Assembly: GCA_963737905.1 (NCBI GenBank)
Contig: CAVTUQ010000001.1
Coordinates: 74,066 to 138,065, forward strand
DNA from: an uncultured delta proteobacterium
GTDB taxonomy: Bacteria; Desulfobacterota; Binatia; UBA9968
DNA: 64,000 bases
Direction: 5' to 3'
Position 1 is the first letter of the stretch. Each line of letters starts with the position of its first letter. Positions 1 through 16,800 of this stretch are shown here, one piece after another. Under the pieces are notes generated by a model, which saw only the letters and a program-made list of their open reading frames with translations, was not told where the DNA came from and did no database searches. The translations under genes were made by a program, and so were the position numbers.

Positions 1-410
1 TGGGACCAAAATGAGCTCGTGCAACCATTAGAGTTCCCCTCGCGGAGTCGCAGCACCACATCATCAATTCCACAAACACGGGCCGCGCTTTCGACGATCG
101 CGTCGAGCACCGGCTGCACGTCCGTGGGCGAGCGGCTGATGATGCCGAGCACCTCGGCGGTCGCCGTCTGGTGCTCCAGGGCCTCGCGCAGCTCTGTGGC
201 AGTCGCCGCCTGGTGCTCCAATGCGTCGGCGAGCTGCTGGTCACGCTCCTGCAATTTTTTAAGAGCTGTGTTCTCCCGCTGCAAAGATTCGGTGAGTTGC
301 TGGCGTAGCTCCGCAATCGTCTGCCCTCGTTTAGCCAGAGTCGTTTTCACCACCGCACGATGTGGTTTTGCCTTGGTATTCTTAGGGCCTTTTTTGGTCG
401 GCGTTACCAT
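1..410 (-). CDS. GAF-domain sensor protein, N-terminal part (runs off window); paralog of 13874..19405
   Basis: Manual translation from ATG at 410: [18 protein letters not shown]...[10 protein letters not shown]...[50 protein letters not shown], closely matching the large kinase. One extra base near 30-39 shifts the frame before MVARAHFGP. Confidence 0.8.
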
Positions 411-534
411 AAATGCAAAAAGACCGAAGCCAGGTTGGTTGGTCGGGGAAATTATACTTATGACAGGAGCGGGTTACCCCGTCGCAACAGGTAGATCCCC
501 CGGCGACTGGAGTTGATTCTTACTTCAGGTGGTT

Positions 535-551
535 GGTGGCGTCAAGGAAAG
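535..551 (-). promoter_or_regulatory. 17-bp motif shared upstream of both GAF-kinase paralogs, containing a TTGACG -35-like box
   Basis: GGTGGCGTCAAGGAAAG is identical at 535-551 and 19516-19532, at similar distance upstream of each start codon. Confidence 0.4.
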
Positions 552-591
552 ACGGTCTTGACGCACTCATTTGAAACGCGCTGTGGCCCGG

Positions 592-1203
592 TCAGCTGTA
601 GCGCCTTGATGTGTCTGCGCTTCTGAGTACGTTCTCGATCCGTCGATCCGGTATGAGCCACAGCAGCGCACCGAATACATACAGGCCCAAGGAGATCCAT
701 TGCCGCCAGAAGGCCAAAGGAATGGCCGCGGCGTAAAGCACCAGCGACAGCTTGCCCTTCCAATCGCCGGCGATAGCCTTTTTGAGAATTGAGTCGGGAC
801 CCTGCGACGCAATGATCAGTTGTTGCAATATCAAGTATGCGACCGCGGCCATCAGAAGCACAACACCGTAGAGCGCTGATGGTGCAGCCGCGAAGTGGTT
901 CTCACCCATCCAGCCTGTCGCGAAGGGTATGAGGGATAGCCAGAACAAGAGATGCAGATTCGCCCATAGCATCGGCCCCGTGACTTGTTGACACGCATAC
1001 AGCATGTGGTGGTGGTTATTCCAATAGATACCCAGGTAGACGAAGCTCAGAACGTAGCTCAGGAATACGGGGATCAATGGCACCAACGTCTCGATGCCCT
1101 CGCCGTGGGGCACCTTCATCTCCAACACCATGATGGTGATGATGATGGCGATCACGCCATCACTGAACGCTTCAAGCCGATTCTTTCCCATGCAGAATGA
1201 CAC
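592..1203 (-). CDS. TMEM175 family (DUF1211) potassium channel
   Basis: RLEAFSDGVIAIIITIMVLE signature, YWNNHH, multiple hydrophobic helices. Confidence 0.9.
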   Translation of the reverse strand: MSFCMGKNRLEAFSDGVIAIIITIMVLEMKVPHGEGIETLVPLIPVFLSYVLSFVYLGIYWNNHHHMLYACQQVTGPMLWANLHLLFWLSLIPFATGWMGENHFAAAPSALYGVVLLMAAVAYLILQQLIIASQGPDSILKKAIAGDWKGKLSLVLYAAAIPLAFWRQWISLGLYVFGALLWLIPDRRIENVLRSADTSRRYS

Positions 1204-1263
1204 TCCCGCTCAAAGGAACTTCCACTTTACAAAAATGGCTACCGCGGATGAATGGTCATCAAT

Positions 1264-1290
1264 GGGGTCAAGTATGGAGTTAAGTTAATT
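1264..1290 (-). repeat. REP-like end of a REP-associated tyrosine transposase element
   Basis: Reverse complement AACTCCATACTTGACCCC matches 40295-40312 and 43937-43954. Confidence 0.6.
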
Positions 1291-1357
1291 AGTTAGCCTA
1301 TCACTTAGGCGCGCTTTTCTAATCCCCTAGCAATAGCAAGCCAACTATTCAACTACT

Positions 1358-1453
1358 AAAGCAGCTACGGCAAAGCCTGAAGATTTCATCGATCCGCGTT
1401 TGGTGAAGAAGCTTGAAGAGAGCGGATTTTTCAAAAAACTCGCGGGCCGATAG
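1358..1453 (+). pseudogene. C-terminal remnant of a NitT/TauT-type substrate-binding protein
   Basis: KAATAKPEDFIDPRLVKKLEESGFFKKLAGR* resembles the C-terminus of 56910..57935 (PADFVDASFFREIEKSGLIEQLY); no upstream gene body. Confidence 0.5.
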
Positions 1454-1820
1454 TAGCGAGTTGATCATCTCGCATCCGTTTTGACGCGATATCAGTCAGT
1501 GCTTTGGCGTGGCTTTTTGAAGTTGGAGAGTCGGTCATGCGGAATGGTGACAGTCCTACGAAAGGGATTCTCAGACTTTTGGCGGGGCAACAAAGATAGT
1601 CAATTCGTAGATTCGTTTGCTCACAGGTATATCTGCTTCGTTCTCGTGAACAATTTCTTGGAAACATCATGGAAACATGGTACAGAAACGCGTTGATTTT
1701 CCAAAGTGTTTTCGCAACAAAATAACTCCAAATCCGTAGGTCGTGAGATTCGTTTCTGGGCGCGAGCTAGTACAGGGATGTTTCTCCACGGCTTGATAAG
1801 ACGCACAGATAGTGCCAACA

Positions 1821-2408
1821 ATGCGTAATGTACAATCAATAGCAACCCTGATCAAGGAAGCGGGTCTCGCCACGATCCCTAACCTGCTGTCCTTCGCCCG
1901 GATCGTCGGGGTAACCTTAGCGGTCATTCTCTACTTGGGAGGGCACGGTTGGGTGGCAGTGGCGATCGGCACCGTCGCCGGCCTGACCGACCACCTCGAT
2001 GGCTACCTAGCGCGTCGGCTTAAGCAAGAGACGGCCCTCGGAGCCATGCTGGACCAGGTCGCTGACAGTTTCACAACGGCGATCCTGCTCGCCATGCTCG
2101 TCGTCACGGGCGGTATCCCGTTCGCCTATCTGGTGATCTTCCTGTTAAGGGAGTTCTGGGTTGGCACCGTGAGGCGGTACGGCGCAGCGGTGGGCATCGA
2201 AATCCCGTCGATCGCGCTGGGCAAGATAGCGACCGCGGTGATTTACTGGGCCATTCTGACGGTGGCGATCATTATCCTGCCCGATATGCCCGCGCGGGTC
2301 GTGGCACCGGTGCACTGGATAGGACTTGTGGGCCTGGGCGTGGGTCTGGCCATCAGTTGCCTGACGGGCTTGCGCTATACAATAACTTTGGGGGGGAAGA
2401 TGGTGTGA
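1821..2408 (+). CDS. CDP-alcohol phosphatidyltransferase (PgsA-like)
   Basis: TIPNLLSFARI start; motif DHLDGYLARRLKQETALGAMLDQVAD; REF..GTVRR. Confidence 0.9.
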   Translation: MRNVQSIATLIKEAGLATIPNLLSFARIVGVTLAVILYLGGHGWVAVAIGTVAGLTDHLDGYLARRLKQETALGAMLDQVADSFTTAILLAMLVVTGGIPFAYLVIFLLREFWVGTVRRYGAAVGIEIPSIALGKIATAVIYWAILTVAIIILPDMPARVVAPVHWIGLVGLGVGLAISCLTGLRYTITLGGKMV

Positions 2409-3571
2409 AACCGATATCCACAAATACTACACGGCGCGGCGCCGAAATTTTGCTCTGCCCAGGTCCTGTCATGCTATCCCCTGGCGTCAAGGCAGCACTT
2501 GCCGACTGCGAGATAGGACACCGCGATACGCGCTTCTCGCAGCTGGTTACGCGGGTGCGGTGCAATAGCCGCCACGTCTTCCGCTCTGGAGATGAGCACA
2601 GCATCCTTTTCATCGGCGGACCCGCGACGGCTGCAATTGAAGCGGTGTGTGCCTCGCTCGTGCCACCGGATGCCAGGGTGCTTGTCCCCGTCAACGGGTC
2701 ATTCGGAGCCCGTATCGCGGAGATCCTGAATGTTTACCAGATCCCCCACACAGCGATCGATTTCGGGTTCGGTAAGCCTTTCGATCTGGATCGCATCAAG
2801 GCGGTCATTGCGGAAGAGCGCCGGTGCGGGTTCACTGCCGTGGCGATGACCCACCATGAGACGTCAGCGGGCCTGCTCAACCCGGTGGCGGCCGTCGGTG
2901 CCCTGGCGCGGCAGCACGGCCTGAAACTGATCGTCGACGCCACGTCGAGCGCAGGCGTCGAGGACCTGGATGTAACGCGCGATGGGATCGACGCGTGCAT
3001 CACGACCTCCGGAAAATGCCTGCATGCGGCGCCGGGGCTCAGCCTTGTCTGCGTGCGACGCGACCTGCTTGAAATGTCCAGGCTAATACGCCCGCGCAGT
3101 TATTCGGTGGACCTGCATCGTTTCCATGACCAGATGGAATTCAACCGCCAGACGCCCTTCACAGCCTCTGTACCCTTGTTCCTTGCGCTCGACCGCGCGC
3201 TTGAAGAACTTCTCGATCGGGGCATCGATGAACGACGACGCGTCTACTGGCGACGCCGCGAAATACTGGCGGCGGGAATGGTACGGCTGGGGTTACCTCT
3301 GTTGCCGTTGCCAACGGGGAGTGAAGCCGCCTCGATTCTGACGGTCGGCGTTCCGGAAACACTCGGCTTCGACGCGCTTTACGCGGCCGTCAAAAATCGT
3401 GGCTACCTCATCTATGCCTGCAAGCCGCCGCTGGCGCCGAACTACTTCCAAATCGCGGTCATGGGAGAATTGGCGGACGATGAGCTTCATGAATTTCTCG
3501 AGATTTTGCAGTCGTTGATGACCACCGTGCCGGCGCGTTACCTCCCCTATGCTAGGTTAGCCCGCGGGTGA
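2405..3571 (+). CDS. Class V PLP aminotransferase, 2-aminoethylphosphonate transaminase (PhnW/AepZ)-like
   Basis: LLCPGPV, HHETSAGLLNP, IVDATSSAG, PLP lysine in TSGKCLH, QTPFT, GYLIY. GTG start overlaps the upstream stop (GTGA). Confidence 0.85.
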   Translation: MKPISTNTTRRGAEILLCPGPVMLSPGVKAALADCEIGHRDTRFSQLVTRVRCNSRHVFRSGDEHSILFIGGPATAAIEAVCASLVPPDARVLVPVNGSFGARIAEILNVYQIPHTAIDFGFGKPFDLDRIKAVIAEERRCGFTAVAMTHHETSAGLLNPVAAVGALARQHGLKLIVDATSSAGVEDLDVTRDGIDACITTSGKCLHAAPGLSLVCVRRDLLEMSRLIRPRSYSVDLHRFHDQMEFNRQTPFTASVPLFLALDRALEELLDRGIDERRRVYWRRREILAAGMVRLGLPLLPLPTGSEAASILTVGVPETLGFDALYAAVKNRGYLIYACKPPLAPNYFQIAVMGELADDELHEFLEILQSLMTTVPARYLPYARLARG

Positions 3572-3577
3572 TCAAAA

Positions 3578-4075
3578 TTGACAGGAAAAGAAGTGTCACC
3601 GGCCGTCAACGCGGGGGTATTCTGCAGCTGGCGCCATTTTCTCGCGTTCGGTCTCGGTAGCGGACTGGCCAGGTTTGCGCCGGGCACGTTCGGCACCCTC
3701 GTTGCAATCGCCTTCTATCTTCCCCTGAGCCAGCAGCCGCACTGGCTCTATGCAATCTGCGTGTTTTGCGCCTTTGCCTTTGGTGTCTGGCTTTGTCAAA
3801 GCGTCACGCATGACCTCGGTGTGCACGACCATGGCGGCATCGTGTGGGACGAGTTCGTCGGTTACTGGATCACGATGTTCCTCGTGCCCGTTAGCTGGGG
3901 CACGGTCCTGGCCGGCTTTGCGCTGTTTCGCCTGCTCGACATCTGGAAACCATGGCCGATTTGCTGGATCGACAAGCACGTGCAAGGCGGCCTCGGCATC
4001 ATGCTGGATGATGTGATTGCCGGCGCGGCTGCCTGTATTATCCTGCACTCCCTTCGCGCGGGCGCCGGGTTTTGA
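3578..4075 (+). CDS. pgpA: Phosphatidylglycerophosphatase A
   Basis: GSGLARFAPGTFGTL, HDHGGIVWDEFVG, FRLLDIWKPWPI, GGLGIMLDDVIAG. Confidence 0.93.
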   Translation: MTGKEVSPAVNAGVFCSWRHFLAFGLGSGLARFAPGTFGTLVAIAFYLPLSQQPHWLYAICVFCAFAFGVWLCQSVTHDLGVHDHGGIVWDEFVGYWITMFLVPVSWGTVLAGFALFRLLDIWKPWPICWIDKHVQGGLGIMLDDVIAGAAACIILHSLRAGAGF

Positions 4076-4128
4076 ACCATCGGCCGTTGTCGTTCTCGAA
4101 ATCAAGCCACCGTGCAGCTACTGTTGAA

Positions 4129-4354
4129 CCCGGATTCCGCAGTTGCCGGAAGCGAGGTGGAATCCTGGAGCAGCGAAGGCGTCCGACTGTGAAGTTTCAA
4201 AGTCATTTTGCGCTTTCGCACGTCGTTGCTATGAGGCTCGACATCCCCTCGAAGCACCGCTGATAGATGTCTGCTCAGAGGCAGAAACCCATCGACTTCG
4301 CTGCGGAAGGGTTGCGCCTCGCGCTTCTTGTCGATCGCAACTGCGGAATCCGGG
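4129..4354. mobile_element. MITE, ends resembling IS1380 family
   Basis: Perfect 18-bp terminal inverted repeats CCCGGATTCCGCAGTTGC, flanked by direct repeat TTGAA (4124-4128, 4355-4359); no transposase. Confidence 0.8.
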
Positions 4355-4679
4355 TTGAACGGTGTGAGAGATACGTACGTGACAGAGCCGAGTTTCCGTG
4401 TCTCGTATAGTGAACACATTGGTATCAGAACGCTATTCAAGTCTACTATCAGCGATGGTATCGACAAGGGGTTGTAACGATCGATGTTAGTCTGCGACTC
4501 TGGCCGTTTTTCTATTGGAAGCTGGCCAGATGCATTAATCCATGATAGACCATCCGAACACCATGCAGAAAAAATATGCGAATTTCAGGGACAAGATAAA
4601 AGCACCTGAAGACTTTATTGAACTGTGTGCGAGCCGAAGCCTGGTGTACCGTACCAGTGTTGCTGGTGAGTCTCATTAG

Positions 4680-5588
4680 ATGAGGCGTGTTTTCAACATA
4701 AGCATCTACGGCACTGGAGGGCTACTTCTGCTTATCTTGCTGTTACCTTCTTGTGCAACGACGCAGCTTCATTCAACACCACCCGTGCACTACTATCAGA
4801 ATTCAAGCATTCCGTATCATGCTGACCAGCATTCCAATGAACACGGTCTCAGGGTCATGACGCTGAACTTAGCCCACGGGCGAGGGACCAGTTTTCATCA
4901 ATTGCTGCTGCATTCAGCCGAGATTGTGAAAAACCTAGATAATATAGACAAACTACTGAACCAGGCAGCACCGGATATCGCTGCTTTTCAGGAGATCGAT
5001 GGGCCTTCGTTCTGGAGTGGCAATTTCAACCACGTTGAATATCTTGCAAGTCACAGCATGTTTGCCCGTTCGATTCAGGCGTCACACGTTGATGCGATAG
5101 GACTTTCCTATGGTACAGCACTGATGTCACGACAGGAGATGTCGAATCCGCAGGCGGTTACATTTAACCCCTTACTTACACTGGTACCCACGGGTTTTGT
5201 GGTATCGACCATTAGTTGGCCGGGAAGGGACAGTGTCGACATTGATGTAGTTTCTGTTCATCTGGATTTCATGAGTGGTTGGGTCAGGAAAAAACAGGCA
5301 GACGAACTGATTGCAGTTTTACGTGCCAGAAACAATCACCTAATTATCATCATGGGCGACATGAACTCAGGATGGCAGGACTCGGCACCACAGTACCTGG
5401 TTGAGAAACTTGGGCTGAAGGCGTACCAGCCGGAAAACAGCAGCCTGATCACTTTTCCCCTGCTTGGCAAACGCCTGGACTGGGTCCTGATATCACCCGG
5501 TCTTGAGTTTTCTTCCTATGAAGTTGTCGGAACCGATATTTCCGATCATCGTGGTATACTTGCCGAGCTTACACTTTCTAGCGGGTAA
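4680..5588 (+). CDS. Endonuclease/exonuclease/phosphatase (EEP) family protein, probable lipoprotein
   Basis: LRVMTLNL, AFQEID, SVHLD, MGDMN, RLDWVL, SDHRG motifs; hydrophobic leader ending LPSC. Confidence 0.85.
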   Translation: MRRVFNISIYGTGGLLLLILLLPSCATTQLHSTPPVHYYQNSSIPYHADQHSNEHGLRVMTLNLAHGRGTSFHQLLLHSAEIVKNLDNIDKLLNQAAPDIAAFQEIDGPSFWSGNFNHVEYLASHSMFARSIQASHVDAIGLSYGTALMSRQEMSNPQAVTFNPLLTLVPTGFVVSTISWPGRDSVDIDVVSVHLDFMSGWVRKKQADELIAVLRARNNHLIIIMGDMNSGWQDSAPQYLVEKLGLKAYQPENSSLITFPLLGKRLDWVLISPGLEFSSYEVVGTDISDHRGILAELTLSSG

Positions 5589-5832
5589 ATAATGGTGGTG
5601 GAGTCGCCAGTGTATGGCGACATTTCGCTCTAATCGCCTCACTTGTGTGCTCCTATGATGCAAAAAGCGGATTGACCGTCCTGTCGTGCAGGCAATCCAG
5701 TTCGGCCACCGCCCTGTTGGGCATGTCGCGGCACAGTTTGTCCACCTGCAGGACAAGGCACTGTGTCTAGAGCGGTTTTTTTGCCAGCCCGATACCACGC
5801 GACAGGGTCAGCTCACATAAAGAATCCAAATT

Positions 5833-6555
5833 TCAATGTTCAGAATAAAAAACAATCTTTTTAATAAAGGCGTCGGCGCCACCTTTTGTGTCGTCGGTGT
5901 TCATTTCAAACGCAAAGCCTGTGATGGGCGGCGTCTTTTCCTGTTTGAAAACGTCTTTAAATCGATTGTTGACTTCAAATCTGGTGACAATCGTTTGCCC
6001 CATAGGCGCGCCATTGGATACACAAAAGTAGCGCCCCCCTTCCTGGTATAACGTACCGAGGTACATTCTATTTACCTGTTCTTTCTCGCCGATGAACGCA
6101 CTAAGGAAGTACGGAGCGTCCTTGATGCCCAAAGGCAAGCCGCTACTCAACTTCTTGTCGCCAAAACTGAAAATGACGCCAATCGGCACCCGTTTTTTTC
6201 CTTGTGCCCAGTCTGCACCGATGGGAAAGCGGTTTACACCCCATTCAATAGCAATATGATTTACGTCGCCAACGTAATTTGGCTTGCCAAACTTTAATCC
6301 GAACATGGCTGTCAAATCTTCGTTCGTGCTGATGCGCAGCCCCTCATTCTCAAACTTCAAATGCAATCTCTTTGCATCGAGAAACTCATCGAATCCCTGC
6401 TTCTTAAGCCATGTGGATGCATCGATATTCTCTTTCTGGCCGAAATCCATGGTGTATAGAGCCTTGGGTTCGGCACCCGCGGATAGTATCTCACCCATGA
6501 TTAGGGCGATTCCAAATATCGTAGCACATAGGCACTTCTTGGAATTTGTGTTCAC
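5833..6555 (-). CDS. Exported hypothetical protein, possibly DUF3047-like
   Basis: Signal peptide; WGVNRFPIGAD and C-terminal ITGFAFEMNTDDT..ADAFIKKIVF pattern. Family call is tentative. Confidence 0.6.
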   Translation of the reverse strand: MNTNSKKCLCATIFGIALIMGEILSAGAEPKALYTMDFGQKENIDASTWLKKQGFDEFLDAKRLHLKFENEGLRISTNEDLTAMFGLKFGKPNYVGDVNHIAIEWGVNRFPIGADWAQGKKRVPIGVIFSFGDKKLSSGLPLGIKDAPYFLSAFIGEKEQVNRMYLGTLYQEGGRYFCVSNGAPMGQTIVTRFEVNNRFKDVFKQEKTPPITGFAFEMNTDDTKGGADAFIKKIVFYSEH

Positions 6556-6633
6556 GCCATCTGTCCCTTATCGGTTATTGGTCATGACAAGCACTGAAAA
6601 GCATATATCCCTTTGAGAACAAGTCAAATGGGG

Positions 6634-7395
6634 TCACCTTGCCGTTCTTGCCGGGGAGCGGCGGAGCCATTCGTCGAGACCGATGCGGCCTAGGCGCGCT
6701 TCCCCCAAAGGCACGAGCGAGCGCTCCTCGACCCGGCTGCCGTAGTATCGGGCCTCGGGGTCACTCACGACCTCACGCGGGTCGCCGACCGCCTTCAGAT
6801 AGCGGGCGACGATTTCGTTGAACGGTGCTCGTTCCGGGCCGGCGACCTCGACGATGCCGTTGCGCGGCGCCGCGAGCGCCACCTCGGCAACGGTGGCAGC
6901 AACGTCGTCCGCTGCGATAGGCTGGAACAGGCCCGCCGAAAGCTTGACTATGTTTCCACTCGTACCTGAAGTGGCTATGCCGGCGAGGAATTCCATGAAC
7001 TGCGTCGAGCGGACGATGGTATAGGGGATGCCGGACTTCTCGATCAGTTTCTCTTGGGCGACCTTGGCGCGGAAATACCCATTGTCGGGCGACCGGTCGG
7101 TTCCGACGATGGAAAGCGCGACATGGTGCCGAACGTCGGCTGTAGCCTCCGCCGCGAGAAGGTTGCGGCCGGAGGTCTCGAAGAATTCCAACACCGCCTT
7201 GTCCTCCCACGAAGGCGCGTTCGCCAGGTCGACGACAACCTGAGCGCCGGCAAGCGCTTTCGCCAGCCCCTCACCCGTGATGGTGTTGACGCCGGTATTG
7301 GGCGAGGCGGCGAGGGCCTCATGGCCGCCCTGGCGCAGAATGGGGATGGTCTTCGAGCCGATTAGGCCGGTGCCGCCGATGACGACGATTTTCAT
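6634..7395 (-). CDS. NmrA/SDR-like NAD(P)-binding oxidoreductase
   Basis: MKIVVIGGTGLIGS Rossmann motif, YFRAK, RSTQFMEF; GGAG ribosome site upstream. Confidence 0.88.
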   Translation of the reverse strand: MKIVVIGGTGLIGSKTIPILRQGGHEALAASPNTGVNTITGEGLAKALAGAQVVVDLANAPSWEDKAVLEFFETSGRNLLAAEATADVRHHVALSIVGTDRSPDNGYFRAKVAQEKLIEKSGIPYTIVRSTQFMEFLAGIATSGTSGNIVKLSAGLFQPIAADDVAATVAEVALAAPRNGIVEVAGPERAPFNEIVARYLKAVGDPREVVSDPEARYYGSRVEERSLVPLGEARLGRIGLDEWLRRSPARTAR

Positions 7396-7588
7396 ATGTG
7401 ATCTCCTTTCTGTAGTCGCCCGCAATTCGGGCGAGTGTTCAAGTGCACTTCAGATTCGTATTACGTTTAGCGCGTATCCGTGTAAGAACGTTGCCAATGT
7501 TTATGAACCATGAACAGCTCGTTTCTCCTCTGTCTTTCCAGTGCTCCGTCGACGATAATTCGGAGCAAGCGGCAAAATGCTGCCCCAG

Positions 7589-8020
7589 TCACTTCACTGG
7601 CACGAGCGCCGGAGCGCCCTTGTCCTTGATCATGAACACAACGAATTTTGCTGGCTGGGTTTTGCTTGCGTTCCGGTCAACGGTATGAACATCGTCGGGG
7701 CCTTCATAGAAGGTCTGTCCTGGCGTCAGCGTAACTTCTTTTCCACCCTTCACTTGCATCACAACGGAGCCCTCCAGTACGTAAAGCATCGCATGTGCAT
7801 TGTGTCGGTGGGCAGGGTTCGACCCGCCGGGCACATGCTCCACCGCGATCATCAGAAGTTCCTTGCCAGGGAAGTCCTTCAGATCTTTCGACATGAGAGA
7901 CGTTACCTTGGCCTCCTGAGCCATCAAGGTGCCGGCAATGAGAGATAGACCAACACTCAGGAAGAGGGTTAATACGAGGTACTCAACTCTCGTGAACCAA
8001 CAATCGGTTGCGTGCTTCAT
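7589..8020 (-). CDS. Exported cupin-domain protein
   Basis: Signal peptide; PAHRHNAHAMLYVLEG and PGQTFYEGPDDVH cupin motifs. Confidence 0.88.
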   Translation of the reverse strand: MKHATDCWFTRVEYLVLTLFLSVGLSLIAGTLMAQEAKVTSLMSKDLKDFPGKELLMIAVEHVPGGSNPAHRHNAHAMLYVLEGSVVMQVKGGKEVTLTPGQTFYEGPDDVHTVDRNASKTQPAKFVVFMIKDKGAPALVPVK

Positions 8021-8323
8021 TATGGCGTCTCCTTCTCGGTATTGTTAAATATGTTGTGCCCGGTGCCACTCCTTTGACCAAACTTTCGCGCCGGTCCTCC
8101 TATGGTCTTAACACGCTAATGATTTGCGTCAAGTAAATTCATTGTTAAGAAAACTTAGAATTTTTGATGTTTCTATGCAGAATTTTTCTGACTTTATTTT
8201 TTTCTTAAATCGGTTTGGCTTTTCATGCACCTATTTCATGGCTGGTGCCATCGGCTTGACCTAGAATTGCGGAGTTGAAGGTTATTCGACTCTATTCCTC
8301 GCTAGCTTGTCTGGAACAACCTC

Positions 8324-8593
8324 ATGGACGATATTTCTCTGCAGCAGTTCACCGCGATGGACCAGGCGACCAATGTGGCGAGCTACGTTCACGCGCTTGA
8401 AGCCTTCGACGGTATCGAACAGTTGCAGGAGCTAAAAGTGATCGCCCGCCTGCGCGGTGGGATTGCACGCGGATGCAGCATTCTTGATGTCGGCTGCGGT
8501 TTCGGGCTGGAGACCCTGCGGCTTGCCAGTCTAATGGCAACGAGCGGCAAGGTGGCCGGCATTGAAAACAGCGTCGACTTTATTGCAGAGACG
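8324..8593 (+). pseudogene. Truncated class I SAM-dependent methyltransferase
   Basis: ILDVGCGFG motif I and GKVAGIE motif II; methyltransferase-like sequence stops at the att-like site near 8594. Confidence 0.7.
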
Positions 8594-8730
8594 CACACGA
8601 GGATTGCAGATCCTTTGCGGGCGGTATCTGCATTAAGCGAAAGAGACGATACGAGAATTGCTAATCCTCGTGTCACGTCTAACCCGAAGAGGACACAACA
8701 GAATTTTTCTACTTTGCCACTACTTTGTCA
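8594..8730. other. att-like region: two tRNA-Phe-like dyad cores plus arm-type direct repeats
   Basis: CACGAGGA-TTGCAGA-TCCT (8596-8614), GATACGAGAA-TTGCTAA-TCCTCGTGTC (8648-8674), ACTTTGCCA/ACTTTGTCA (8711-8730). Confidence 0.6.
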
Positions 8731-8780
8731 TAGGCAAACAGCTATGGGAAAATGAATCTTGCCACTTGGGAAGAAACGAA

Positions 8781-9320
8781 ATAGCAGGATTGAAAGGCAA
8801 AAGCGGACCTCCAGGCAATATGAACGCCTTCAAGCATGGGCTGGCGGCGATTCAGAAACGGCGGGAGGAGGGCATTCCCACCGAGCACGAGGAAAGCGTC
8901 AGGCAGCAAATTTTCGATGAACTGATAGCCGACAAGGGCGGGGATGAGCAGATATCGACCGCTACCAGGAATCTTGCCGAGGTTATCGCCAGTGACGCCT
9001 CCTGACTTATGGTCTTTAACGGTCCCATCGACCAGATCATCCAGAGCAACCAAAAGGTCCGGCAAAACCCGCGTGGTCTTCATCAATTGGACGGCTACAA
9101 GCGCGGCCTGGTTAACAGCCTTACCGGCAACCTCCAGAAATTTGGCCTGGATAGAATTCCTCAGGTCAAGACTCTAGAGGACCTGCTTCAGGACGATGAA
9201 ACCATCGAGAATCCCACCCAGGATTGTCCAGAAGCAATGAACGCAACGCAAGATAAAATCCCGACGGCTCCCCACCTGATGCGACAGACTGGATCGACGC
9301 CGAGCACCGCGTTCTCATAG
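8781..9320 (+). pseudogene. Phage terminase-small-subunit-like gene, decayed (copy 1)
   Basis: GKSGPPGNMNAFKHG motif; start is ATA where copy 2 has ATG; in-frame TGA at 9003-9005. Confidence 0.55.
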
Positions 9321-9368
9321 TATCTCACGTTTGACAGTGACTTAACATTTTGTTAAGTTCAACGACAC

Positions 9369-9670
9369 GTGGCCGACAGAGCCAAACCACTCAGTGATGG
9401 GGATATTTCCAAGGTCATCAGCCATGCCCTTGACCGGGGTGCGGTGCTGCCGAGCAATCATTTCCGTCGACGGATGCGCGAACGCAATTTCGACATGCAG
9501 GACACTGTAGCAGCGCTCGAGGAACGGAGGCGAATCAAGGCTGTTGGAACGATATCGCTCATACATGGAACTATGACGTAAGAGGCCACGATCTCGATGG
9601 AAACGAGCTAACCATAAGGATAGTGCCCACCGACGATGACACCGGAATCGTCTTGGTGACAGGCTTTTAG
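9369..9670 (+). CDS. DUF4258-like toxin (frameshift near 9545)
   Basis: SNHFRRRMRERNF; adding one T restores ...AVWNDIAHTWNYDVRGHDLDGNELTIRIV...IVLVTGF*. Lies directly upstream of the antitoxin. Confidence 0.7.
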
Positions 9671-9692
9671 GTGCTGGATAAGAGGAGCGATC

Positions 9693-10202
9693 ATGAAGTG
9701 CCCTAACTGCGGAAAGGAGATGAAGTTTAAGGTCCGCGACTATGAGTACGTGGAGTCCGGGCTCAAGAACGTGGTGCTGAAGGATATCACTGTTCACGAA
9801 TGTAAACACTGCGGCGAGGTCTTGCCGGAAATACGAAATATCAAGCAGATTCACCAGTGGATAGCGGAATACCTGCTCAAGAAGAAAGGTGCCCTAACGG
9901 GCCCAGAGTTTCGGTTTCTGAGAAAAGCCATGGGGAAGAGCGCCAAAGAAACAGCCGAGTGTCTGGCAGTGAACCCTGTCACTATTTCGCGATGGGAAAA
10001 CAACAAGGAAAAGATTGGCCCGCAGTCGGACCGGCTTCTTAGAATGGCATTTATTCTCGACCCGGCTGAGGCGCGGTCGTTCGCCGCGACAAAGTTGCTG
10101 GAGTTTGCGCGCGCGACTCTGGGCTGCACAATAGCGACTCGTAAAAGAGCGAAGCCTGAGAAGATCGTCATCACTCCGAGCGATGTTCGACAAGGAGAAT
10201 AG
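9693..10202 (+). CDS. MqsA-family antitoxin (zinc finger + Xre HTH)
   Basis: CPNC...CKHC zinc finger; EFRFLRK...VNPVTISRWEN helix-turn-helix. Confidence 0.88.
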   Translation: MKCPNCGKEMKFKVRDYEYVESGLKNVVLKDITVHECKHCGEVLPEIRNIKQIHQWIAEYLLKKKGALTGPEFRFLRKAMGKSAKETAECLAVNPVTISRWENNKEKIGPQSDRLLRMAFILDPAEARSFAATKLLEFARATLGCTIATRKRAKPEKIVITPSDVRQGE

Positions 10203-10384
10203 GTCGAATGTAACGCTTTGCCGGCGACAACGCCTATCTCAAAGCGCTGCCAACTAGGAAGACCGCACTCTAATAGCAGCGGCTTGCTTTATGAGACGTT
10301 TGTAAAAACAATCGAGAAGCGTTGGGACGGGATCCCACTTACCGCAGCGCCTGCAACCTGGTGGAATTCTAAGAGAGGGGAATG

Positions 10385-10431
10385 TGGCCGGGGACAGAAT
10401 CGAACTGCCGACACGAGGATTTTCAGTCCTC
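10385..10431 (-). tRNA. 3' fragment of tRNA-Phe(GAA), att-site remnant, not a complete tRNA
   Basis: Minus strand GAGGA-CTGAAAA-TCCTC anticodon arm, GGCAG-TTCGATT-CTGTC T arm, CCCGGCCA acceptor 3' side; D arm and 5' acceptor strand absent. Confidence 0.85.
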
Positions 10432-10547
10432 ATACCGTACCGGGACTATGTGTCACTATCGGTCGCTATTGGTATCTATTCAAGCGTTTAACGGCGGTCT
10501 CAGCCGGTCGATTTTACCGATTCGAACACATAGATGGCATATAGTTC

Positions 10548-10567
10548 TGGCAAAGTTGTGGCAAAGT
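10548..10567 (+). repeat. Integrase arm-type direct repeats
   Basis: TGGCAAAGT-TG-TGGCAAAGT, the reverse complement of the repeats at 8711 and 20678, same 11-bp period. Confidence 0.6.
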
Positions 10568-11030
10568 CAGTGAACCTCGTTCGGCCCAAAGTCGTCTCAA
10601 TCCAGCCATTAAATAAGTCTTGATGGCCGCCGAGACTCGAATTCCGGACCCGCCGATTAAGAGTCAAGTCCAGCGCGGACCAGAACAGAACATTAATAAG
10701 AATGCCCAACCATTTCGAGGCCCGCTTGGCTTTTTCTTCGGCAATGGAAGGTGTATGTTCTGCCCAGATTCAGGCACAAAACAAGCACAGCCATGAGGTG
10801 AAAGCCATGAGGCGCGAGGGAGAAATGAATAAGCGGAAGCTCGGTAGCTTTGCTCTAAGCGTGATGCTCCTTGCGCTTAGCGTATCCGCTCAGGCGCAGC
10901 AGCCAGCGAACGTTCACAAGATAGGCGTGCTGCGAGCCGATTCGCCGCCGAATCTCTCGGCAGAGACATTTCAGCAGGCAATGCGCGATCTTGGTTACGT
11001 AGAAGGCAAGAATATCGTCATCGAGTACCG

Positions 11031-12458
11031 CTACGCCGAAGGAAAAGTTGACCGGTTACCCAACCTTGCGGAAGAGTTAGTGCGTCTCAATGTAGACGTG
11101 ATCTGGGCACTAGGCCCAGCAGTTTCGCATGCCAAGCGGAAAATTTCAAGATAGATGTCGCATTGATTGTTCAATTGAGATTCTCTGACGTTGGACAATG
11201 ACTGTTCACTGTGAAACGAAGCCCGGAGTCCAAGAGCGATGGTTAGCGTATCATCGCTCGGCTGATTTTTGACCCTAGGTACACCCTCACCTACATCGCC
11301 AGCGTTCGTTGTAGGGCATTTATGGAAGCCGTTTTTGGGGCCGACCCAGTCGATATCGGAAAATTGCTTGAGGGCCTCACTCATGACCGAGATTGTTGGC
11401 GAGGCAGGATCGAGGGATAGTTCCTCGTCGGTTTCGCTGTTGTGCTTTTTAGGATTGAGACACACTTCGGTGATCGGCACCCAGTTGCGCGTCTGCCCCG
11501 ACCAGCGCAGCGGGTTTAACTGCTTGGCCTTTTCATACACCGCCACACGCTTGGCTAGAATCGCTTTGTCCAATCCCAGGTGTCGAGAGCTGGGCGTGAC
11601 AAAACGAATCGCGCTATGAAGATGCTCAGTGTTGTACCACTGCACAAAACCACCCACCCACTGTCGGGCTTGATCGATCCCGCTAAAGGCGCTGTCGGGA
11701 TAGGAGGGACGGTACTTCAGGGTTTTGAACAGCGATTCAGAATATGGGTTGTCATCGCTCACCGCGGGACGACTAAAAGACGCCGCCACTCCCAGCCGCT
11801 CCAGAGTCGCCAACAAGGTGGCCCCTTTCATCGGGGCGCCATTGTCCGAATGTAACGTCAGCTGCCCTCTGGCAATCCCTTGCTCTTGGCAGAGCCGATC
11901 GATCAACCGTGCTCCATGCTCGGCGCTCTCCATTTCTTCAACGGTCCACCCAACGATCATCCGGCTGAAAATGTCTTCGACCAAGTACAAATAATAATAG
12001 GCCCCGCGCACCGGGCTGTTCAGATACGTGATGTCCCAGCTCCACACCTCGTTGGGATGGCGCGCTAGCAAATCCTTGGGCCGGCGCCAAACGCGCGGCT
12101 TACTGTTTTGACGGTGCGACAGCAACTGGTTTTGTTTTAACACCCGGTAAAAACTGCTCTCCGATCCCAGATACTGCCCAGCGTCGGCTAACCGCGCCAC
12201 CATCTGCCACGGCGACAGATCGCGATACGCTCGGCTATTGGACACTTCCACAATGGCTTGTTTCTCTTTCTCGCTGAACCCATGCCCACACACGCTCTTC
12301 GGCCCCCGTCGCTGATCGCCCCGGTCGGGATCTTTCTCCCACCGCTCCACCGTCCGTAGACTCACCTCCAGCACTTCGCAACTAGCCACCCGCCCCGCGC
12401 CACTGGCCCTGGCTTGCTGGACCAGCTCTATACAGCGACCGCGATCTCCCACGCTCAC
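11031..12458 (-). CDS. IS3-family transposase OrfB (rve DDE)
   Basis: WSWDITYL, LHSDNG, DDNPYSESLFKTLKY; GTG start overlaps the orfA stop; the frame runs past the IS end. Confidence 0.9.
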   Translation of the reverse strand: MSVGDRGRCIELVQQARASGAGRVASCEVLEVSLRTVERWEKDPDRGDQRRGPKSVCGHGFSEKEKQAIVEVSNSRAYRDLSPWQMVARLADAGQYLGSESSFYRVLKQNQLLSHRQNSKPRVWRRPKDLLARHPNEVWSWDITYLNSPVRGAYYYLYLVEDIFSRMIVGWTVEEMESAEHGARLIDRLCQEQGIARGQLTLHSDNGAPMKGATLLATLERLGVAASFSRPAVSDDNPYSESLFKTLKYRPSYPDSAFSGIDQARQWVGGFVQWYNTEHLHSAIRFVTPSSRHLGLDKAILAKRVAVYEKAKQLNPLRWSGQTRNWVPITEVCLNPKKHNSETDEELSLDPASPTISVMSEALKQFSDIDWVGPKNGFHKCPTTNAGDVGEGVPRVKNQPSDDTLTIALGLRASFHSEQSLSNVRESQLNNQCDIYLEIFRLACETAGPSAQITSTLRRTNSSARLGNRSTFPSA

Positions 12459-13021
12459 TGCTCCTCTCCGCTGCCCCAGATCAAGTCTGCTTTTTTTTTC
12501 AACACCAACAACGCCGTCGTCTCCGCCAACGCCTTCTCCTTGCGAGAAAGATCTCTCTCCAACTCCTTGATCTTTTTCTTGTCCGCCGCCCATTCGCTGC
12601 CATTGGCCGCCGTTAATCCACCGCCCCCCGATTCCAGCCCCACCTCCATACTCTTCTTCCATCCCGCGATATGTTCGCTATGGAGCCCTTCCCGCCGCAA
12701 GTACTCACCCTGCTCTTCTACCTCCAGTCCTTCGAACTCGATCACTGCTCTCAGTTTCTCTTGCACGCTTCGATCTCCCGGTCTGCGATGGGCTTTCATC
12801 ACCTCCGTCTTACCATAGCGCTTGCTCCATTGATAAAGCGACCAGCTCGATACTCCCAGCACTCGCCCCACCTCTTCCACCGACCGCGATCCTCGATTCT
12901 GAAACTTTTCCACTGCCGCTCTTCTAAACTCCTCGCTCCTTTGTTGACTCACTTGCTTCTTCTTCTCTCTCGCCCCACTTTTCCGCTCTTGCTCCACGCG
13001 ACATCTATCCTGACATTAGGG
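11137..13021 (-). mobile_element. IS3-family insertion sequence
   Basis: Imperfect ~25-bp inverted repeats sharing GATAGATGTCGC; direct repeat GCCAAG at 11131-11136 and 13022-13027; orfA/orfB arrangement. Confidence 0.9.
12455..12997 (-). CDS. IS3-family transposase OrfA
   Basis: N-terminal HTH, YLRREGLH, KEKALAETTALLVLKKKA with an A9G run near 12490-12499. Confidence 0.88.
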   Translation of the reverse strand: MEQERKSGAREKKKQVSQQRSEEFRRAAVEKFQNRGSRSVEEVGRVLGVSSWSLYQWSKRYGKTEVMKAHRRPGDRSVQEKLRAVIEFEGLEVEEQGEYLRREGLHSEHIAGWKKSMEVGLESGGGGLTAANGSEWAADKKKIKELERDLSRKEKALAETTALLVLKKKADLIWGSGEEQ

Positions 13022-13873
13022 GCCAAGAATGCTACCAAAACAATCCCTATTGTCATAACACATGTTAGCGACCCTGTAGGATCAGGGCTAGTCGCCAGCC
13101 TGGCGCGACCCGGAGGCAACATAACGGGATTGTCCGGTGTTTCCGCTGGAGCTACTAAGCGGCAAGCGACTGGAGCTTCTGAAGGAGACCGTTCCCAAGT
13201 TCTCCCGTGTGGCTTTCTTCGGACCTACCCTCGGGCAACCACAAACAGTTAAAAGAGATGGAACGCGACGCCGGGGAGTTAGGGGTAAAGCTTCAATACT
13301 TAGAGGTACAGAGTCCCAAGGAAATTGAACCCGCACTTCTAGCCGCGAGCAAAGGGCGTGCTCAAGCAGTCCTCATAAATAGGAACCCCTTTACTGCTAT
13401 TCATTACGCACGGATCGCAGAGCTTGCGATAAAGAACCGCCTTCCAACCATGTACGCCGATAGGGAGTTCGTCGAAGCCGGTGGGCTAATGTCCTATGGA
13501 CCAGACTATATCTTTATGTATCGACGCGTTGCCGTTTACGTGGACAAGATTCTGAAAGGCACCAAGCCCGCCGATCTGCCCGTAGAGCGGCCCATGAAGT
13601 ACGAGCTGGTGATAAATCTCAAGACCGCGAAGCAGATCGGTCTGACGATTCCACCGAATCTGCTGGCACGGGCAGATAAGGTGATTAAGTAAGACGCTGA
13701 ACACCAGAAGCGGAGGCTGGGTCACACCCGGCGAGCGGACATCGAATCGTAAATGTCTGCTGAGTGAATATCAGATGTCCCCAATAATGGCCCTGCGTCG
13801 CGATATACGCTTGCGAGACGACAGTCGCTACGCTCAAATTTATGGTTCTTGTCGTTATCCCCCACGATTAAAA

Positions 13874-16800
13874 TCAGCTTGGCGATGATCTCTCAGGTAA
13901 GCTAAAGCTGAAGGTAGACCCTTTGCCTATCTCACTTTCTACCCAGATCTTTCCCCCATGCAGTTCGACAAACTTCTTGGCTAAGGTTAACCCAAGTCCG
14001 GTCCCCTCGACCTTATGTGCATAGTCCGCTCCCACTTGGCGGAATTCCTCGAATATCTTTGGCTGATCCTCCGGGGCGATCCCGATGCCGGTGTCACTGA
14101 CCGATATCTCTACCGAACCATCAGCCTGCCTGGCGTTAATTCCAATCCGTCCTCCCTCCGGTGTGAACTTCACGGCATTGGAGAGCAGATTAAGCAGGAT
14201 CTGTTTGATCTTGCGCTCATCACCTATGAAATCGCCAAGATGCTCGTCAACAGTAACGTCGAGGTTGATCCCGTGCTTGGTGGCCCGCTCGCGCACAAAG
14301 GTACGCGCGTTGTCGATTGCCAAGGGCAGATCAAACGTAGCAACCTCTAGCTCCATGCGGCCAGCCTCCACCTTGGAGAGATCGAGAATCTCATTGATGA
14401 GGGACAAAAGATGGCGGCCGGAAGAGAGGATGTCGTCGGTGTACTCGGCTTGTTTCTCGTTCAGCTCGCCGAACAGTCTTTCCTCCAAGACTTCCGAGAA
14501 ACCGATGATGGCATTGAGCGGCGTGCGTAGCTCATGGGACATGTTGGCGAGAAACTCCGACTTGTGCCGATTGGCGGCCTCGATCTGACGGCTCTTGTCT
14601 TCGATCTCGCGGAACAGTCGGGCGTTTTGGATCGCCAATACGGACTGGGTGGCGAAGGTTTTCAAAAGCTCGATGACTTCGGGGCGAAACTCGCCGGTGG
14701 ATTTTCGCCTGACCACCAAGCCGCCAATGATGCGGTCTTCGCGTAACAACGGGACAGCCAGACTGGCGCGAAAGCCGAAGCGCTCCAGCAACTGACGCAT
14801 TCGCAGCGCATACGTGTGCTCTTCGAGGATATTGGGGATTTGTATGGGTTCACGCGTTGACGCTGCCCGACCCACCAACCCGTCTCCCAAGTGCGGCGGA
14901 TTGGCGCGAAGCGCGTTGATGAGTTCTTCCTCCATGTGATCAGTAGCCCTGAGCAAGAACTCTTCGGATTCTTCGTCATATTCGTAAATCGCTCCGCCGT
15001 CCGTGCCGCTTAACTGGACCGCATGGGAGACGATTCTCGTCAGTACGGCTTCGAGGTCGAGAGTGGAGCTGACTACCTGGCTGACTTCGCCGAGGGCTTT
15101 GAGTTCGCCTACCGAGCGTGTCAGTTCGTTGGTTCGCTCATCTAATTCTTTGAACAGCCGAACGTTCTCGATGGCGATGACGGCCTGGTCAGCGAAGGTT
15201 TCGAGGAGCTTGATCTGCGCCGGGGTGAAGGGGCGCACCTCAATGCGACGTGCTGTCAGGTATCCAATGAGTTCCCCCTGTTGTCGAAGGGGAACGTACA
15301 AGCCGGTGCGCCAGATACCAGAATGGCCCACCAATGGGAAATCGGTCTGCGCTCGCACGTCCGGAATGTGGAGCGTGCCGTGCTCACGCATCCACCGAAA
15401 AAATGGTTCATCAATATTGATCTCGACGCGGTTAATTGGTATCGGGCCAAAGTGAGCCCGGGGAACTATAACGTTCCCCTCGGGGAGTCGCAGTATCACA
15501 TCATCAATCCCACAGACCCGCGCCGCGCTCTCGACGATGGCGTCCAGAACGGGCTGCACGTCCGTCGGCGAGCGGCTGATGATGCTGAGCACCTCGGCCG
15601 TTGCCGTCTGATGCTCTAGCGCCTCGCGCAATTCTGCATTGCGCTCGCCCAATTCCCGGAAGAGGCGGACGTTTTCGATGGCAATGACCGCCTGCGACGC
15701 AAAGGTTTCAAGCAGCTTAACCTGCTTATCAGTAAAGGGACGAACTTCGGTTCGTCGGACGTTGATCACTCCTATGGAAACACCCTCGCGAAGCAAAGGC
15801 GTCGCAAGAATTGTCCGAGTCCCGAAACGTTGTTGTAAGATTTTGCTTTCCGGAAAGTCCTTATCGCTCTCTGTAGCGAGATCGTGAATATGAACCGTCT
15901 GCCGATCAACGATAGCCCGAGTACCGACTAAGCCACGAGTAATGGGACGTTTCTCTTCCTGACCGGGTGCTGGCTGTGTACCGTAGGATGCCCATTGGCG
16001 AACAAAATCGCCCTCGACACGACTGATTTGCGCGTCAGTGGCGTCACATAGTCGCGCGGCACTTTCTGCAACGGCATCGAGCACCGGCTGGATGTCCGTA
16101 GGTGAACTAGCAATGACACCCAAGATTTCACTTGTCGCAGTCTGCTGATCCAACGACTCCTTGAGTTCGTTGAAAAGCCGGACGTTTTCGATGGCGATCA
16201 CCGCTTGGTCGGCGAAAGTCTCTAGGAGCTTGATCTGCGCTGGGGTGAAGGGGCGCACCTCGATGCGACGTGCGATGAGCCTGCCGATGACTTCCCGCTG
16301 CTGACGAAGCGGAACCGCCAAGAAGGTACGAAAGTTGCCGAGCGGAGTTATTTGAAAATCCATTTGGGCTTGGTTCAGTACATCGGGAATGTGGACCGTA
16401 CCAAGATGGAGAGTCCAAGGCCTTCCTCCCTCATCAATACTGATCTCTCGGCGGGCAACTGGTATGGGACCAAAATGAGCCCGCGCAACCATATTGTTTC
16501 CCTCATGAAATCGCAATATAAGATCATCTATCCCACAAACCCGCGCGGCACTCTCGACGATAGCGTCGAGAACCGGCTCCACATCGGTGGGCGAGCGGCT
16601 GATGATGCTGAGCACCTCGGCGGTTGCGGTCTGATGCTCCAGCGCCTCCCGTAATTCTGCGTTCCGATCCTGCAATTCCTTAAACAGCCGCACATTCTCA
16701 ATAGCGATCACTGCTTGGTCGGCAAAAGTTTTTAGGAGGTTTACCTGTGTGTCGGTGAAGGGACGGGTCTCTTGGCGGCGAATCGTAATAACCCCGATAG

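Follow-up and report, generated by a model that had tools for sequence, protein, structure and literature searches.

What would an aminotransferase do between two genes of phospholipid synthesis? The question is raised by a window of 64,000 nucleotides (positions 74,066 to 138,065 of contig CAVTUQ010000001.1, assembly GCA_963737905.1) from an uncultured delta proteobacterium of the Binatia lineage UBA9968, for which a preliminary description had proposed a pathway to an amino-polyol phospholipid. Positions given below are those of the window, and our own handles for genomes (G, the window's genome being G000), contigs (C) and loci (L) are used only where needed. The three genes in question, hereafter the trio, are the following:

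1821-2408, plus strand: gene 1, a PgsA-like CDP-alcohol phosphatidyltransferase of 195 aa (PF01066 CDP-OH_P_transf, 99.9 bits)
2405-3571, plus strand: gene 2, a class V PhnW-like aminotransferase of the Gln type (defined below), 388 aa from GTG 2405 (PF00266 Aminotran_5, 66 bits)
3578-4075, plus strand: gene 3, a PgpA-family phosphatase, 165 aa from TTG 3578 (PF04608 PgpA, 147.7 bits)

The start codons of the trio are predictions. Gene 1 is taken from ATG 1821, with GTG 1812 as an alternative. Gene 2, if begun at GTG 2405, overlaps gene 1 in the four bases GTGA, which include the TGA of the latter; TTG 2357 and ATG 2471 are alternative starts in its frame. The TTG 3578 of gene 3 lies 6 bp past the TGA of gene 2. 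For gene 3, GTG 3593 with AGGAAA in front of it is at least as plausible a start, and the gap is then 21 bp. Whichever starts hold, the three genes are coupled, and the open reading frames are found on one strand just as the preliminary description had it, with a GTGA overlap and a 6-bp gap. A similar four-base start/stop overlap was seen again in four related loci (L022, L024, L025 and L028). We also scanned positions 1200-4800 for promoters and terminators, and found one promoter-like site (1793-1822), which is no more than shuffled sequences give, and no convincing terminator past pgpA. The three proteins clearly belong to their families, and all of them score below the NCBIfam cut-offs curated for proteins of the same function.

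On balance, we think it likely that the trio aminates a triose phosphate, phosphatidylates the product and then dephosphorylates it to an amino analogue of phosphatidylglycerol (PG). The substrate is one that we infer, the conversion of dihydroxyacetone phosphate (DHAP) into serinol phosphate being favoured. Firstly, the aminotransferase would aminate the triose phosphate, either DHAP or, alternatively, glyceraldehyde 3-phosphate (GAP), which would give 3-amino-1,2-propanediol phosphate. Then, as its family and active-site residues suggest, the PgsA-like enzyme would move the phosphatidyl group of CDP-diacylglycerol (CDP-DAG) onto the free hydroxyl of the amino alcohol. Finally the phosphatase, to judge from its family, would strip the head-group phosphate to leave a zwitterionic "phosphatidylserinol". 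Serinol phosphate is favoured because it is glycerol 3-phosphate with NH3+ in place of the 2-OH, and keeps the primary hydroxyl for attack by a PgsA-type enzyme. The last two steps might also occur in the reverse order: since soluble glycerol-3-P and GAP are further substrates of E. coli PgpA, an enzyme that reads the glycerol head group (PMC11629553), the phosphatase might free the amino alcohol before the transferase acts. The order aminotransferase, PgpA, transferase would also permit a 3-amino-1,2-propanediol head group made from GAP.

With the aminotransferase as query, we retrieved 22 genome loci and compared their gene order. The trio is adjacent, with its order kept, in 17 of them (the PgpA match being partial in L028 and L034); three others are truncated by contig ends, and there the two remaining genes are still adjacent. 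In the last two, both from Myxococcales and with 39-41% identity, the aminotransferase is fused to a nucleoside triphosphate (NTP) transferase and has no lipid genes beside it. The grouping of the three genes is more than chance, and its conservation as a unit, put forward in the preliminary description, is what these loci show. Down to 57% aminotransferase identity, they have the trio alone in common.

The best NCBIfam and PDB matches of gene 2 are 2-aminoethylphosphonate (AEP) transaminases, at scores below their cut-offs: 297.7 bits against 360.8 for the best model, TIGR03301 (PhnW-AepZ), 205.5 against 400.8 for TIGR02326 and 226 against 296 for NF010006. In HMMER alignments, the segment NYFQIAVMG of gene 2 falls on FRVGCIG of 7e7g and FRIANIG of 6pd1, so that Gln349 stands at the position of the Arg of the FR motif. 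We refer to enzymes with Gln at this position as the Gln type and to those with Arg as the Arg type. The Schiff-base Lys204, the PLP-binding Asp178 and Gln349 are invariant in 119/119 sequences (the query, 116 database homologues longer than 340 aa, L038 and L039). Among 1.84 billion cluster representatives, the 19 top matches all carry Gln, the first Arg form coming at rank 20; conversely, Arg is found at the FR position in 65/65 Arg-type loci. By comparing 107 Gln-type with 65 Arg-type sequences we derived the following type-specific positions:

position 41: D in the Gln type, E in the Arg type
position 100: F in the Gln type, Y in the Arg type
position 326: Y in the Gln type, H in the Arg type
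position 340: K in the Gln type, Q in the Arg type
position 349: Q in the Gln type, R in the Arg type

The pair Lys340/Gln349 against Gln/Arg is a coupled swap, by which the positive charge is shifted nine residues along the chain. Such a shift would suit a phosphate at a greater distance from the amine carbon than that of a phosphonate.

The relationships of these enzymes were examined in a quick IQ-TREE tree with SH-aLRT support only, whose 70 rows comprise the query, 12 of the 19 sequences of the trio set, 14 random fusions, all 15 Gln-type sequences of a second set and 28 of the 65 Arg-type sequences taken at random. We observed that the trio enzymes form one clade (support 100) with its own long stem, and that this clade is nested in a supported all-Gln clade of 37 rows, which also takes in six solo forms and the fusions from Myxococcota. 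Five other Gln rows make up a second clade (support 99), joined to the two Arg clades at an unresolved node; one change between Gln and Arg, or two, are both possible.

For gene 1, the nearest NCBIfam model is TIGR00560 (pgsA), with 76.8 bits and a cut-off of 109.1 that is not reached. The CDP-alcohol motif D57xxD60G61xxA64R65...G74xxxD78xxxD82 is intact in the window protein and in 18/18 orthologues. We mapped the other residues by hand, from the alignment to PgsA of S. aureus (7DRJ) and with the motif numbering of PMC8640168; the numbering coincides. In the structural account of that paper, K83, R110, R118, K137 and Y181 contact the 3'-phosphate of phosphatidylglycerol phosphate, K83, R110 and K137 making an electropositive pocket, while T138 bonds the 2'-hydroxyl and K135 contacts the alpha-phosphate of CDP-DAG (PMC8640168). 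R110, R118, K135 and T138 are retained in the window transferase and in 18/18 orthologues, and so is the Tyr equivalent to Y181 in the 17 orthologues whose alignment reaches it. Instead of Lys, position 83 holds Ser (17) or Gly (1) and position 137 holds Ala (18/18), the window protein having Ser83 and Ala137. The residue set by which PgsA holds the head-group phosphate is incomplete in gene 1, two of the five being lost; the genome's own PgsA, on contig C15, has K83. The loss of two lysines beside the residue that reads the 2' position may reflect a 2'-ammonium group or an acceptor without phosphate, and for the head group proposed here the missing positive charge at this place appears to fit a cationic 2'-amino group. 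The core of the earlier interpretation, a pathway for a non-phosphonate amino-alcohol head group, is strengthened by the Gln type and by the lost lysines; its chemistry is still deduced.

The names carried by the best matches of gene 2 call for a search for phosphonate genes. In G000 (6.7 Mb in 46 contigs, 87.5% complete, 6.7% contaminated), no phosphoenolpyruvate (PEP) mutase (best 135.2 bits against 319.55), no phosphonopyruvate decarboxylase Ppd (133.7 against 312.5) and no phosphonatase PhnX (36.5 against 220) was detected above cut-off, so that the absence of pepM, ppd and phnX, noticed earlier in the window, holds genome-wide at this level of completeness. PEP mutase passed its cut-off in none of six Gln-type genomes, four with the trio and two with a Myxococcales fusion (best 122.3 bits in the five beyond G000); of five genomes that carry an Arg-type relative, four have a PEP mutase match of 272-371 bits inside or at the edge of that very locus. 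When the PEP mutase of L201 was compared by tblastn with loci L019-L200, it was found in the flanks of 30/65 Arg-type loci against 0/112 Gln-type loci (19 of the trio set, 78 fusions and 15 others), a contrast that sees only flanks of 5-8 kb and whose statistical weight is overstated, kin loci not being independent. Contigs of G000 also carry many two-part matches to a model of thiamine-dependent phosphonopyruvate/sulfopyruvate decarboxylase (e.g. C15:94125-95125 and C2:132356-133353); all are far below cut-off, several have a stop between the halves, and they are probably paralogues of two-subunit decarboxylases.

The genomic contexts of the other Gln-type enzymes point to polyol phosphates. 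In the fusions (loci L041-L120, and for instance L038:5152-7110), proteins of about 620-660 aa join a cytidylyltransferase-like NTP_transf_3 domain to a Gln-type aminotransferase. The best 80 fusion loci all come from metagenome-assembled genomes (MAGs), whose labels are Myxococcota, Myxococcales, Polyangia, Kofleriaceae, Haliangiales or, less precisely, delta- or proteobacteria. At the N-terminus the fusion has a PF12804 domain, which among the NCBIfam models matches inositol-1-phosphate cytidylyltransferase best (81.9 bits, a score far under the cut-off). Since the aminotransferase is here fused to a cytidylyltransferase, its amine product would be a phosphate ester that is then CDP-activated. 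No PEP mutase was seen in either of the two fusion genomes checked, nor in the flanks of 78 fusion loci. Clustering of the neighbourhoods of the 80 loci gave no lipid partner, only housekeeping synteny (cysS, MerR, IscS-like) and antisense shadow open reading frames. In L038 an APC-family permease follows the fusion gene. As to the solo forms in the larger clade of the trio enzyme, L122 adjoins a glycerophosphodiesterase, and L121 a class III aminotransferase and a polysaccharide flippase.

The second Gln clade has F100, K340 and Q349 in common with the trio enzyme. We sampled 80 of its loci (L206-L285), 79 of which were confirmed as F/Q. Of the 63 loci whose upstream sequence is long enough, 37 have a glycerol-kinase-family gene on the same strand no more than 300 bp upstream; counted anywhere in the locus, such a gene is present in 49/80. 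These kinases reach 547-704 bits on the GlpK subfamily model, and in 5/5 genomes checked at least two GlpK-family genes are present, of which this kinase has the lower score. Other neighbours are amine-type ABC, TRAP or APC transporters and regulators of the GntR or AraC kind; a gene for an M20 peptidase, a metallophosphoesterase or an opine-dehydrogenase-like protein occurs in single loci. The kinase-aminotransferase pair probably serves the breakdown of an amino alcohol that resembles glycerol, such as serinol, and the proposed order reads as uptake, phosphorylation and transamination to a triose phosphate. The pair ranges over Anaerovoracaceae (e.g. L234:757-6083, Anaerovorax odorimutans), other Bacillota, Spirochaetota, Atribacterota, Chloroflexota and Desulfobacterales.

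We then considered how the trio is distributed. In the closest relatives it belongs to a larger shared block:

1797-6615: shared block, the trio and two downstream genes (blastn, window 1-14000 against loci L019-L040)
4680-5588, plus strand: a protein of the endonuclease/exonuclease/phosphatase (EEP) family (PF03372, 59 bits)
5833-6555, minus strand: a 240-aa protein with a signal-like N-terminus, within the shared block of the closest relatives

The block has about 90-98% nucleotide identity to contigs of MAGs from other genera and families, and the outer flanks are unrelated. The EEP protein has a signal-peptide-like N-terminus followed by a Cys (possibly a lipoprotein), and by tblastn its gene accompanies the trio in the closest relatives only (aminotransferase identity of at least 84%: L019-L022, L024, L037 and L040). 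For the 240-aa protein there was no match in Pfam or NCBIfam. In the window's own family, the trio was found in 3/90 genomes; the two other carriers (G045 and G047) are of a different genus, with 96-97% aminotransferase identity, and both genomes of the same genus as G000 lack it. In the family of locus L033 (genome G092), 2/121 sampled genomes carry it. A search of plasmids with the aminotransferase returned 17 records, all at or below 35% identity, with no close relative and no cultured carrier among them. The trio is an accessory cassette that moves horizontally, apparently between lineages; a rare and patchy module of this kind has to take its substrates from among the universal metabolites.

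Between pgpA and the EEP gene, the window carries an insertion of about 226-245 bp (4120-4363) which no close relative of the block has. Its terminal inverted repeats, 27 nt long, are 93% complementary, and copies or fragments of it occur in the same genome at C1:27259-27343 (96%), C2:492387-492635 (75%) and C13:113268-113517 (67%); in appearance it is a miniature inverted-repeat transposable element. Beyond the block, on its downstream side, come a short methyltransferase-like open reading frame that looks truncated (8324-8755, plus strand), an rve-type integrase/transposase gene 4.4 kb past the block (11031-12662, minus strand) and a gene for a histidine kinase of 1843 aa with nine GAF domains (13874-19405, minus strand).

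Several observations weigh against the triose phosphate pathway. Firstly, myo-inositol-1-phosphate synthase (MIPS) is present in 4/5 Myxococcota fusion genomes, and two solo forms of the larger clade of the trio enzyme (L123 and L159) adjoin MIPS-family genes, a sign that some members of the clade may act on cyclitols. Secondly, the kinase-linked clade is not the nearest relative of the trio enzyme: identity is only about 30-34%, and its node with the Arg clades is the unresolved one. The stem of the trio clade is long (0.84 changes per column), and specificity may have shifted along it. Moreover, that the Arg of the FR motif binds the phosphonate is something we assume, after the 2002 PhnW structure paper, and for which no confirming text was found. 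To these are added the two limits of the adjacency comparison, given above with its counts. Lastly, the trio PgpA is the sole PF04608 match in G000 and may also serve ordinary PG synthesis.

The hints of cyclitols serve the alternative that survives best, although we regard it as unlikely. In it the logic of the pathway is the same and the head group is not a C3 unit: a tetrose, pentose, pentulose or keto-cyclitol phosphate would be aminated to give an aminopentanetetrol- or inosamine-type phospholipid. According to PMC9246714, the phosphatase acting on phosphatidylinositol phosphate (PIP) in Bacteroides is indeed a PgpA-family enzyme. The NTP-transferase domain of the fusions resembles inositol-1-phosphate cytidylyltransferase, as said above, and MIPS-family genes adjoin the solo relatives. 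Aminopentanetetrol phospholipids have been reported from archaea and Aquificales, and we know of no genes assigned to them. Against this stands the transferase, which is nearest to a glycerol-3-phosphate enzyme and keeps T138; besides, attack by a PgsA-type enzyme needs a free primary hydroxyl, which the amine made from a pentose 5-phosphate does not have. The pentulose and aminopentanetetrol option of the preliminary description gained no support. As for cyclitols, an inositol route is unlikely for the trio because MIPS (PF01658) was found in 0/6 trio genomes (G000 and five further ones). We rejected an inositol-derived head group on this ground and for want, in the cassette, of a dehydrogenase that would form the keto-cyclitol.

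A second alternative, which seems improbable to us, is that the product is soluble. Free serinol, or some other amino alcohol, would come from the aminotransferase and PgpA working together, as it does from RtxA or from Cj1437/Cj1435, or the transferase would join two soluble alcohol phosphates in the manner of di-myo-inositol-phosphate synthase. The CDP-alcohol family does include enzymes with soluble donors, and G000 has an NTP-transferase-fused member on C13. But a soluble CDP-alcohol would call for a cytidylyltransferase, which the cassette lacks, whereas CDP-DAG is universal, and K135, the residue that contacts the alpha-phosphate of CDP-DAG in S. aureus PgsA, is kept in a protein whose best model is PgsA. 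The occurrence of the three genes together in 17/22 loci also speaks against it.

We give about the same low credit to the third, that the PgsA-like protein and PgpA are a second ordinary PG pathway in which the aminotransferase is an unrelated passenger. PG-pathway models are the best matches of both lipid genes. Gene 3 covers positions 2-139 of the 141 of the PF04608 profile, with 147.7 bits for a cut-off of 28, and it gave 179.5 bits on the PgpA model NF008288, whose cut-off of 226 is not reached. The preliminary description had asked whether housekeeping pgsA and pgpA exist elsewhere in the genome. A true PgsA does: one of the seven PF01066 matches in G000, C15:34238-34870, passes the PgsA cut-off (TIGR00560, 135.5 bits against 109.1). 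A second PgpA does not, the gene of the trio being the only one in this assembly, 87.5% complete, which speaks for ordinary PG synthesis and against the earlier proposal. The finding is softened by what we observed in related genomes. PgpA is present in 69/90 genomes of the family (67/88 when the two unpublished genomes G040 and G060 are excluded), and both PgpA and the trio are missing from two genomes of the same genus as G000, G007 (93% complete) and G008 (89%), so that PG synthesis there is independent of PgpA. G045 and G047 have a second, presumably housekeeping, PgpA locus besides that of the cassette. PgpA is therefore dispensable in the window's genus and extra in these other carriers. 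Two further points stand against ordinary PG synthesis: the substitutions of K83 and K137 are fixed in 18/18 orthologues, and in each of the complete loci the two lipid genes flank the aminotransferase gene, with codons that overlap or nearly abut.

Some features of these lipid genes are recorded here in their own right. The second PgpA of G045 (C30:239605-240023) and of G047 (C15:1038819-1039233) lies in two frames, with breaks at different positions; this could be a long-read sequencing error or decay after the gain of the cassette. In G000, two CDP-alcohol-family genes are adjacent at C13:114861-117103 (L006 and L007); one of them encodes 500 aa with a nucleotidyltransferase-like N-terminal half and recalls enzymes of the IPCT/DIPPS type, and there is no MIPS in the assembly. 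Also in G000, two near-identical PssA-like CDP-alcohol genes of 225 aa lie 1.15 kb apart (C2:238027-238701 and C2:239179-239853), either a tandem duplication or an assembly artefact.

The weakest alternative by far, which we rejected as very improbable, is a phosphonolipid pathway in which gene 2 would be a genuine AEP transaminase and the transferase would attach AEP-derived head groups: it has on its side the name AEP-pyruvate transaminase given to homologues in source annotations, the best NCBIfam and PDB matches, and the Burkholderiales phosphonolipid clusters where an AEP transaminase is paired with CDP-OH transferases (PMC8942020), and against it the scores below the curated cut-offs, the absence of PEP mutase, Ppd and PhnX from G000 and of PEP mutase beside Gln-type loci, the Gln in place of Arg, the lack of a cytidylyltransferase in the cassette, and AEP itself, which has no hydroxyl to take a phosphatidyl group and no need for PgpA.

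How far, then, does the proposed aminolipid pathway resemble known systems? With the PgsA-PgpA route to PG it shares the two families, their inferred order, the catalytic motif and R110, R118, K135, T138 and Y181. It differs from that route by lipid genes below the equivalog cut-offs, by the replacement of K83 and K137 and by the aminotransferase inserted between them; in addition, the trio is accessory and patchy, in a genome with a separate true PgsA. A closer parallel in design is the cluster BT_1522-BT_1526 of Bacteroides thetaiotaomicron, in which, as described in PMC9246714, MIPS, PIP synthase and a PgpA-family PIP phosphatase are encoded together. Both would combine a supplier of the head-group phosphate (in the trio, we infer, the aminotransferase), a CDP-alcohol transferase and a PgpA-family phosphatase without a role in PG synthesis. 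They differ in that the supplier is in the trio a pyridoxal phosphate-dependent aminotransferase, with MIPS in 0/6 genomes, and that the transferase is PgsA-like and not like PIP synthase. For the inositol lipid of Bacteroides, an alternative route with an NTP transferase was also proposed (PMC9246714), of which the Myxococcota fusions may be seen as a parallel cytidylyltransferase version.

With PhnW/AepZ and the PntC-AEP transaminase fusion Tde1415 (1M32, 7E7G, 6PD1), the trio enzyme has the fold and the catalytic Lys and Asp in common, and fusions with a cytidylyltransferase exist in the Gln type too. Unlike them, it has Gln for the Arg of the FR motif, F100 and K340, no association with PEP mutase, a score below the cut-off and a clade of its own. 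[quoted passage not shown]

The first step proposed for the trio has precedents. [quoted passage not shown] We liken them to the trio enzyme by reaction and not by sequence. Cj1437 is, we presume, HisC-like rather than class V. In the open-access literature, where absence is not absence in print, we found neither a natural serinol phospholipid nor a description of the trio. The sole match there to "phosphatidyl serinol" is a phospholipase D enzyme paper, and the "serinol" of PMC8027125 is "serinolysis". The logic of the trio is known from Bacteroides; its supplier and its head group differ, and the lipid pathway appears to be undescribed.

Taken at its widest, the proposal is tentative, and we hold it with less confidence than the pathway of the trio itself: a mobile cassette would give soil bacteria an undescribed lipid class, phosphatidylserinol, which is PG with its 2'-OH replaced by an amino group, and the "AEP transaminases" with Phe100, Lys340 and Gln349 would be amino-polyol-phosphate transaminases, working here for lipid head groups, in Myxococcota for CDP-activated head groups, and in anaerobes, beside a glycerol-kinase paralogue, for the catabolism of amino alcohols.

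The head groups of bacterial membranes are few, and the reading of charge, antibiotic resistance and environmental lipid biomarkers has shifted with every addition to them. Should the amino analogue of PG be made, it would take three genes to turn an anionic lipid into a zwitterionic one, carried in a cassette that apparently moves between lineages, and this would be the gene set to look for where "unidentified aminophospholipids" appear in strain descriptions or in sediment lipidomes. A large group of enzymes is named 2-aminoethylphosphonate transaminase without a link to phosphonate genes, which affects surveys of phosphonate metabolism that count such matches.

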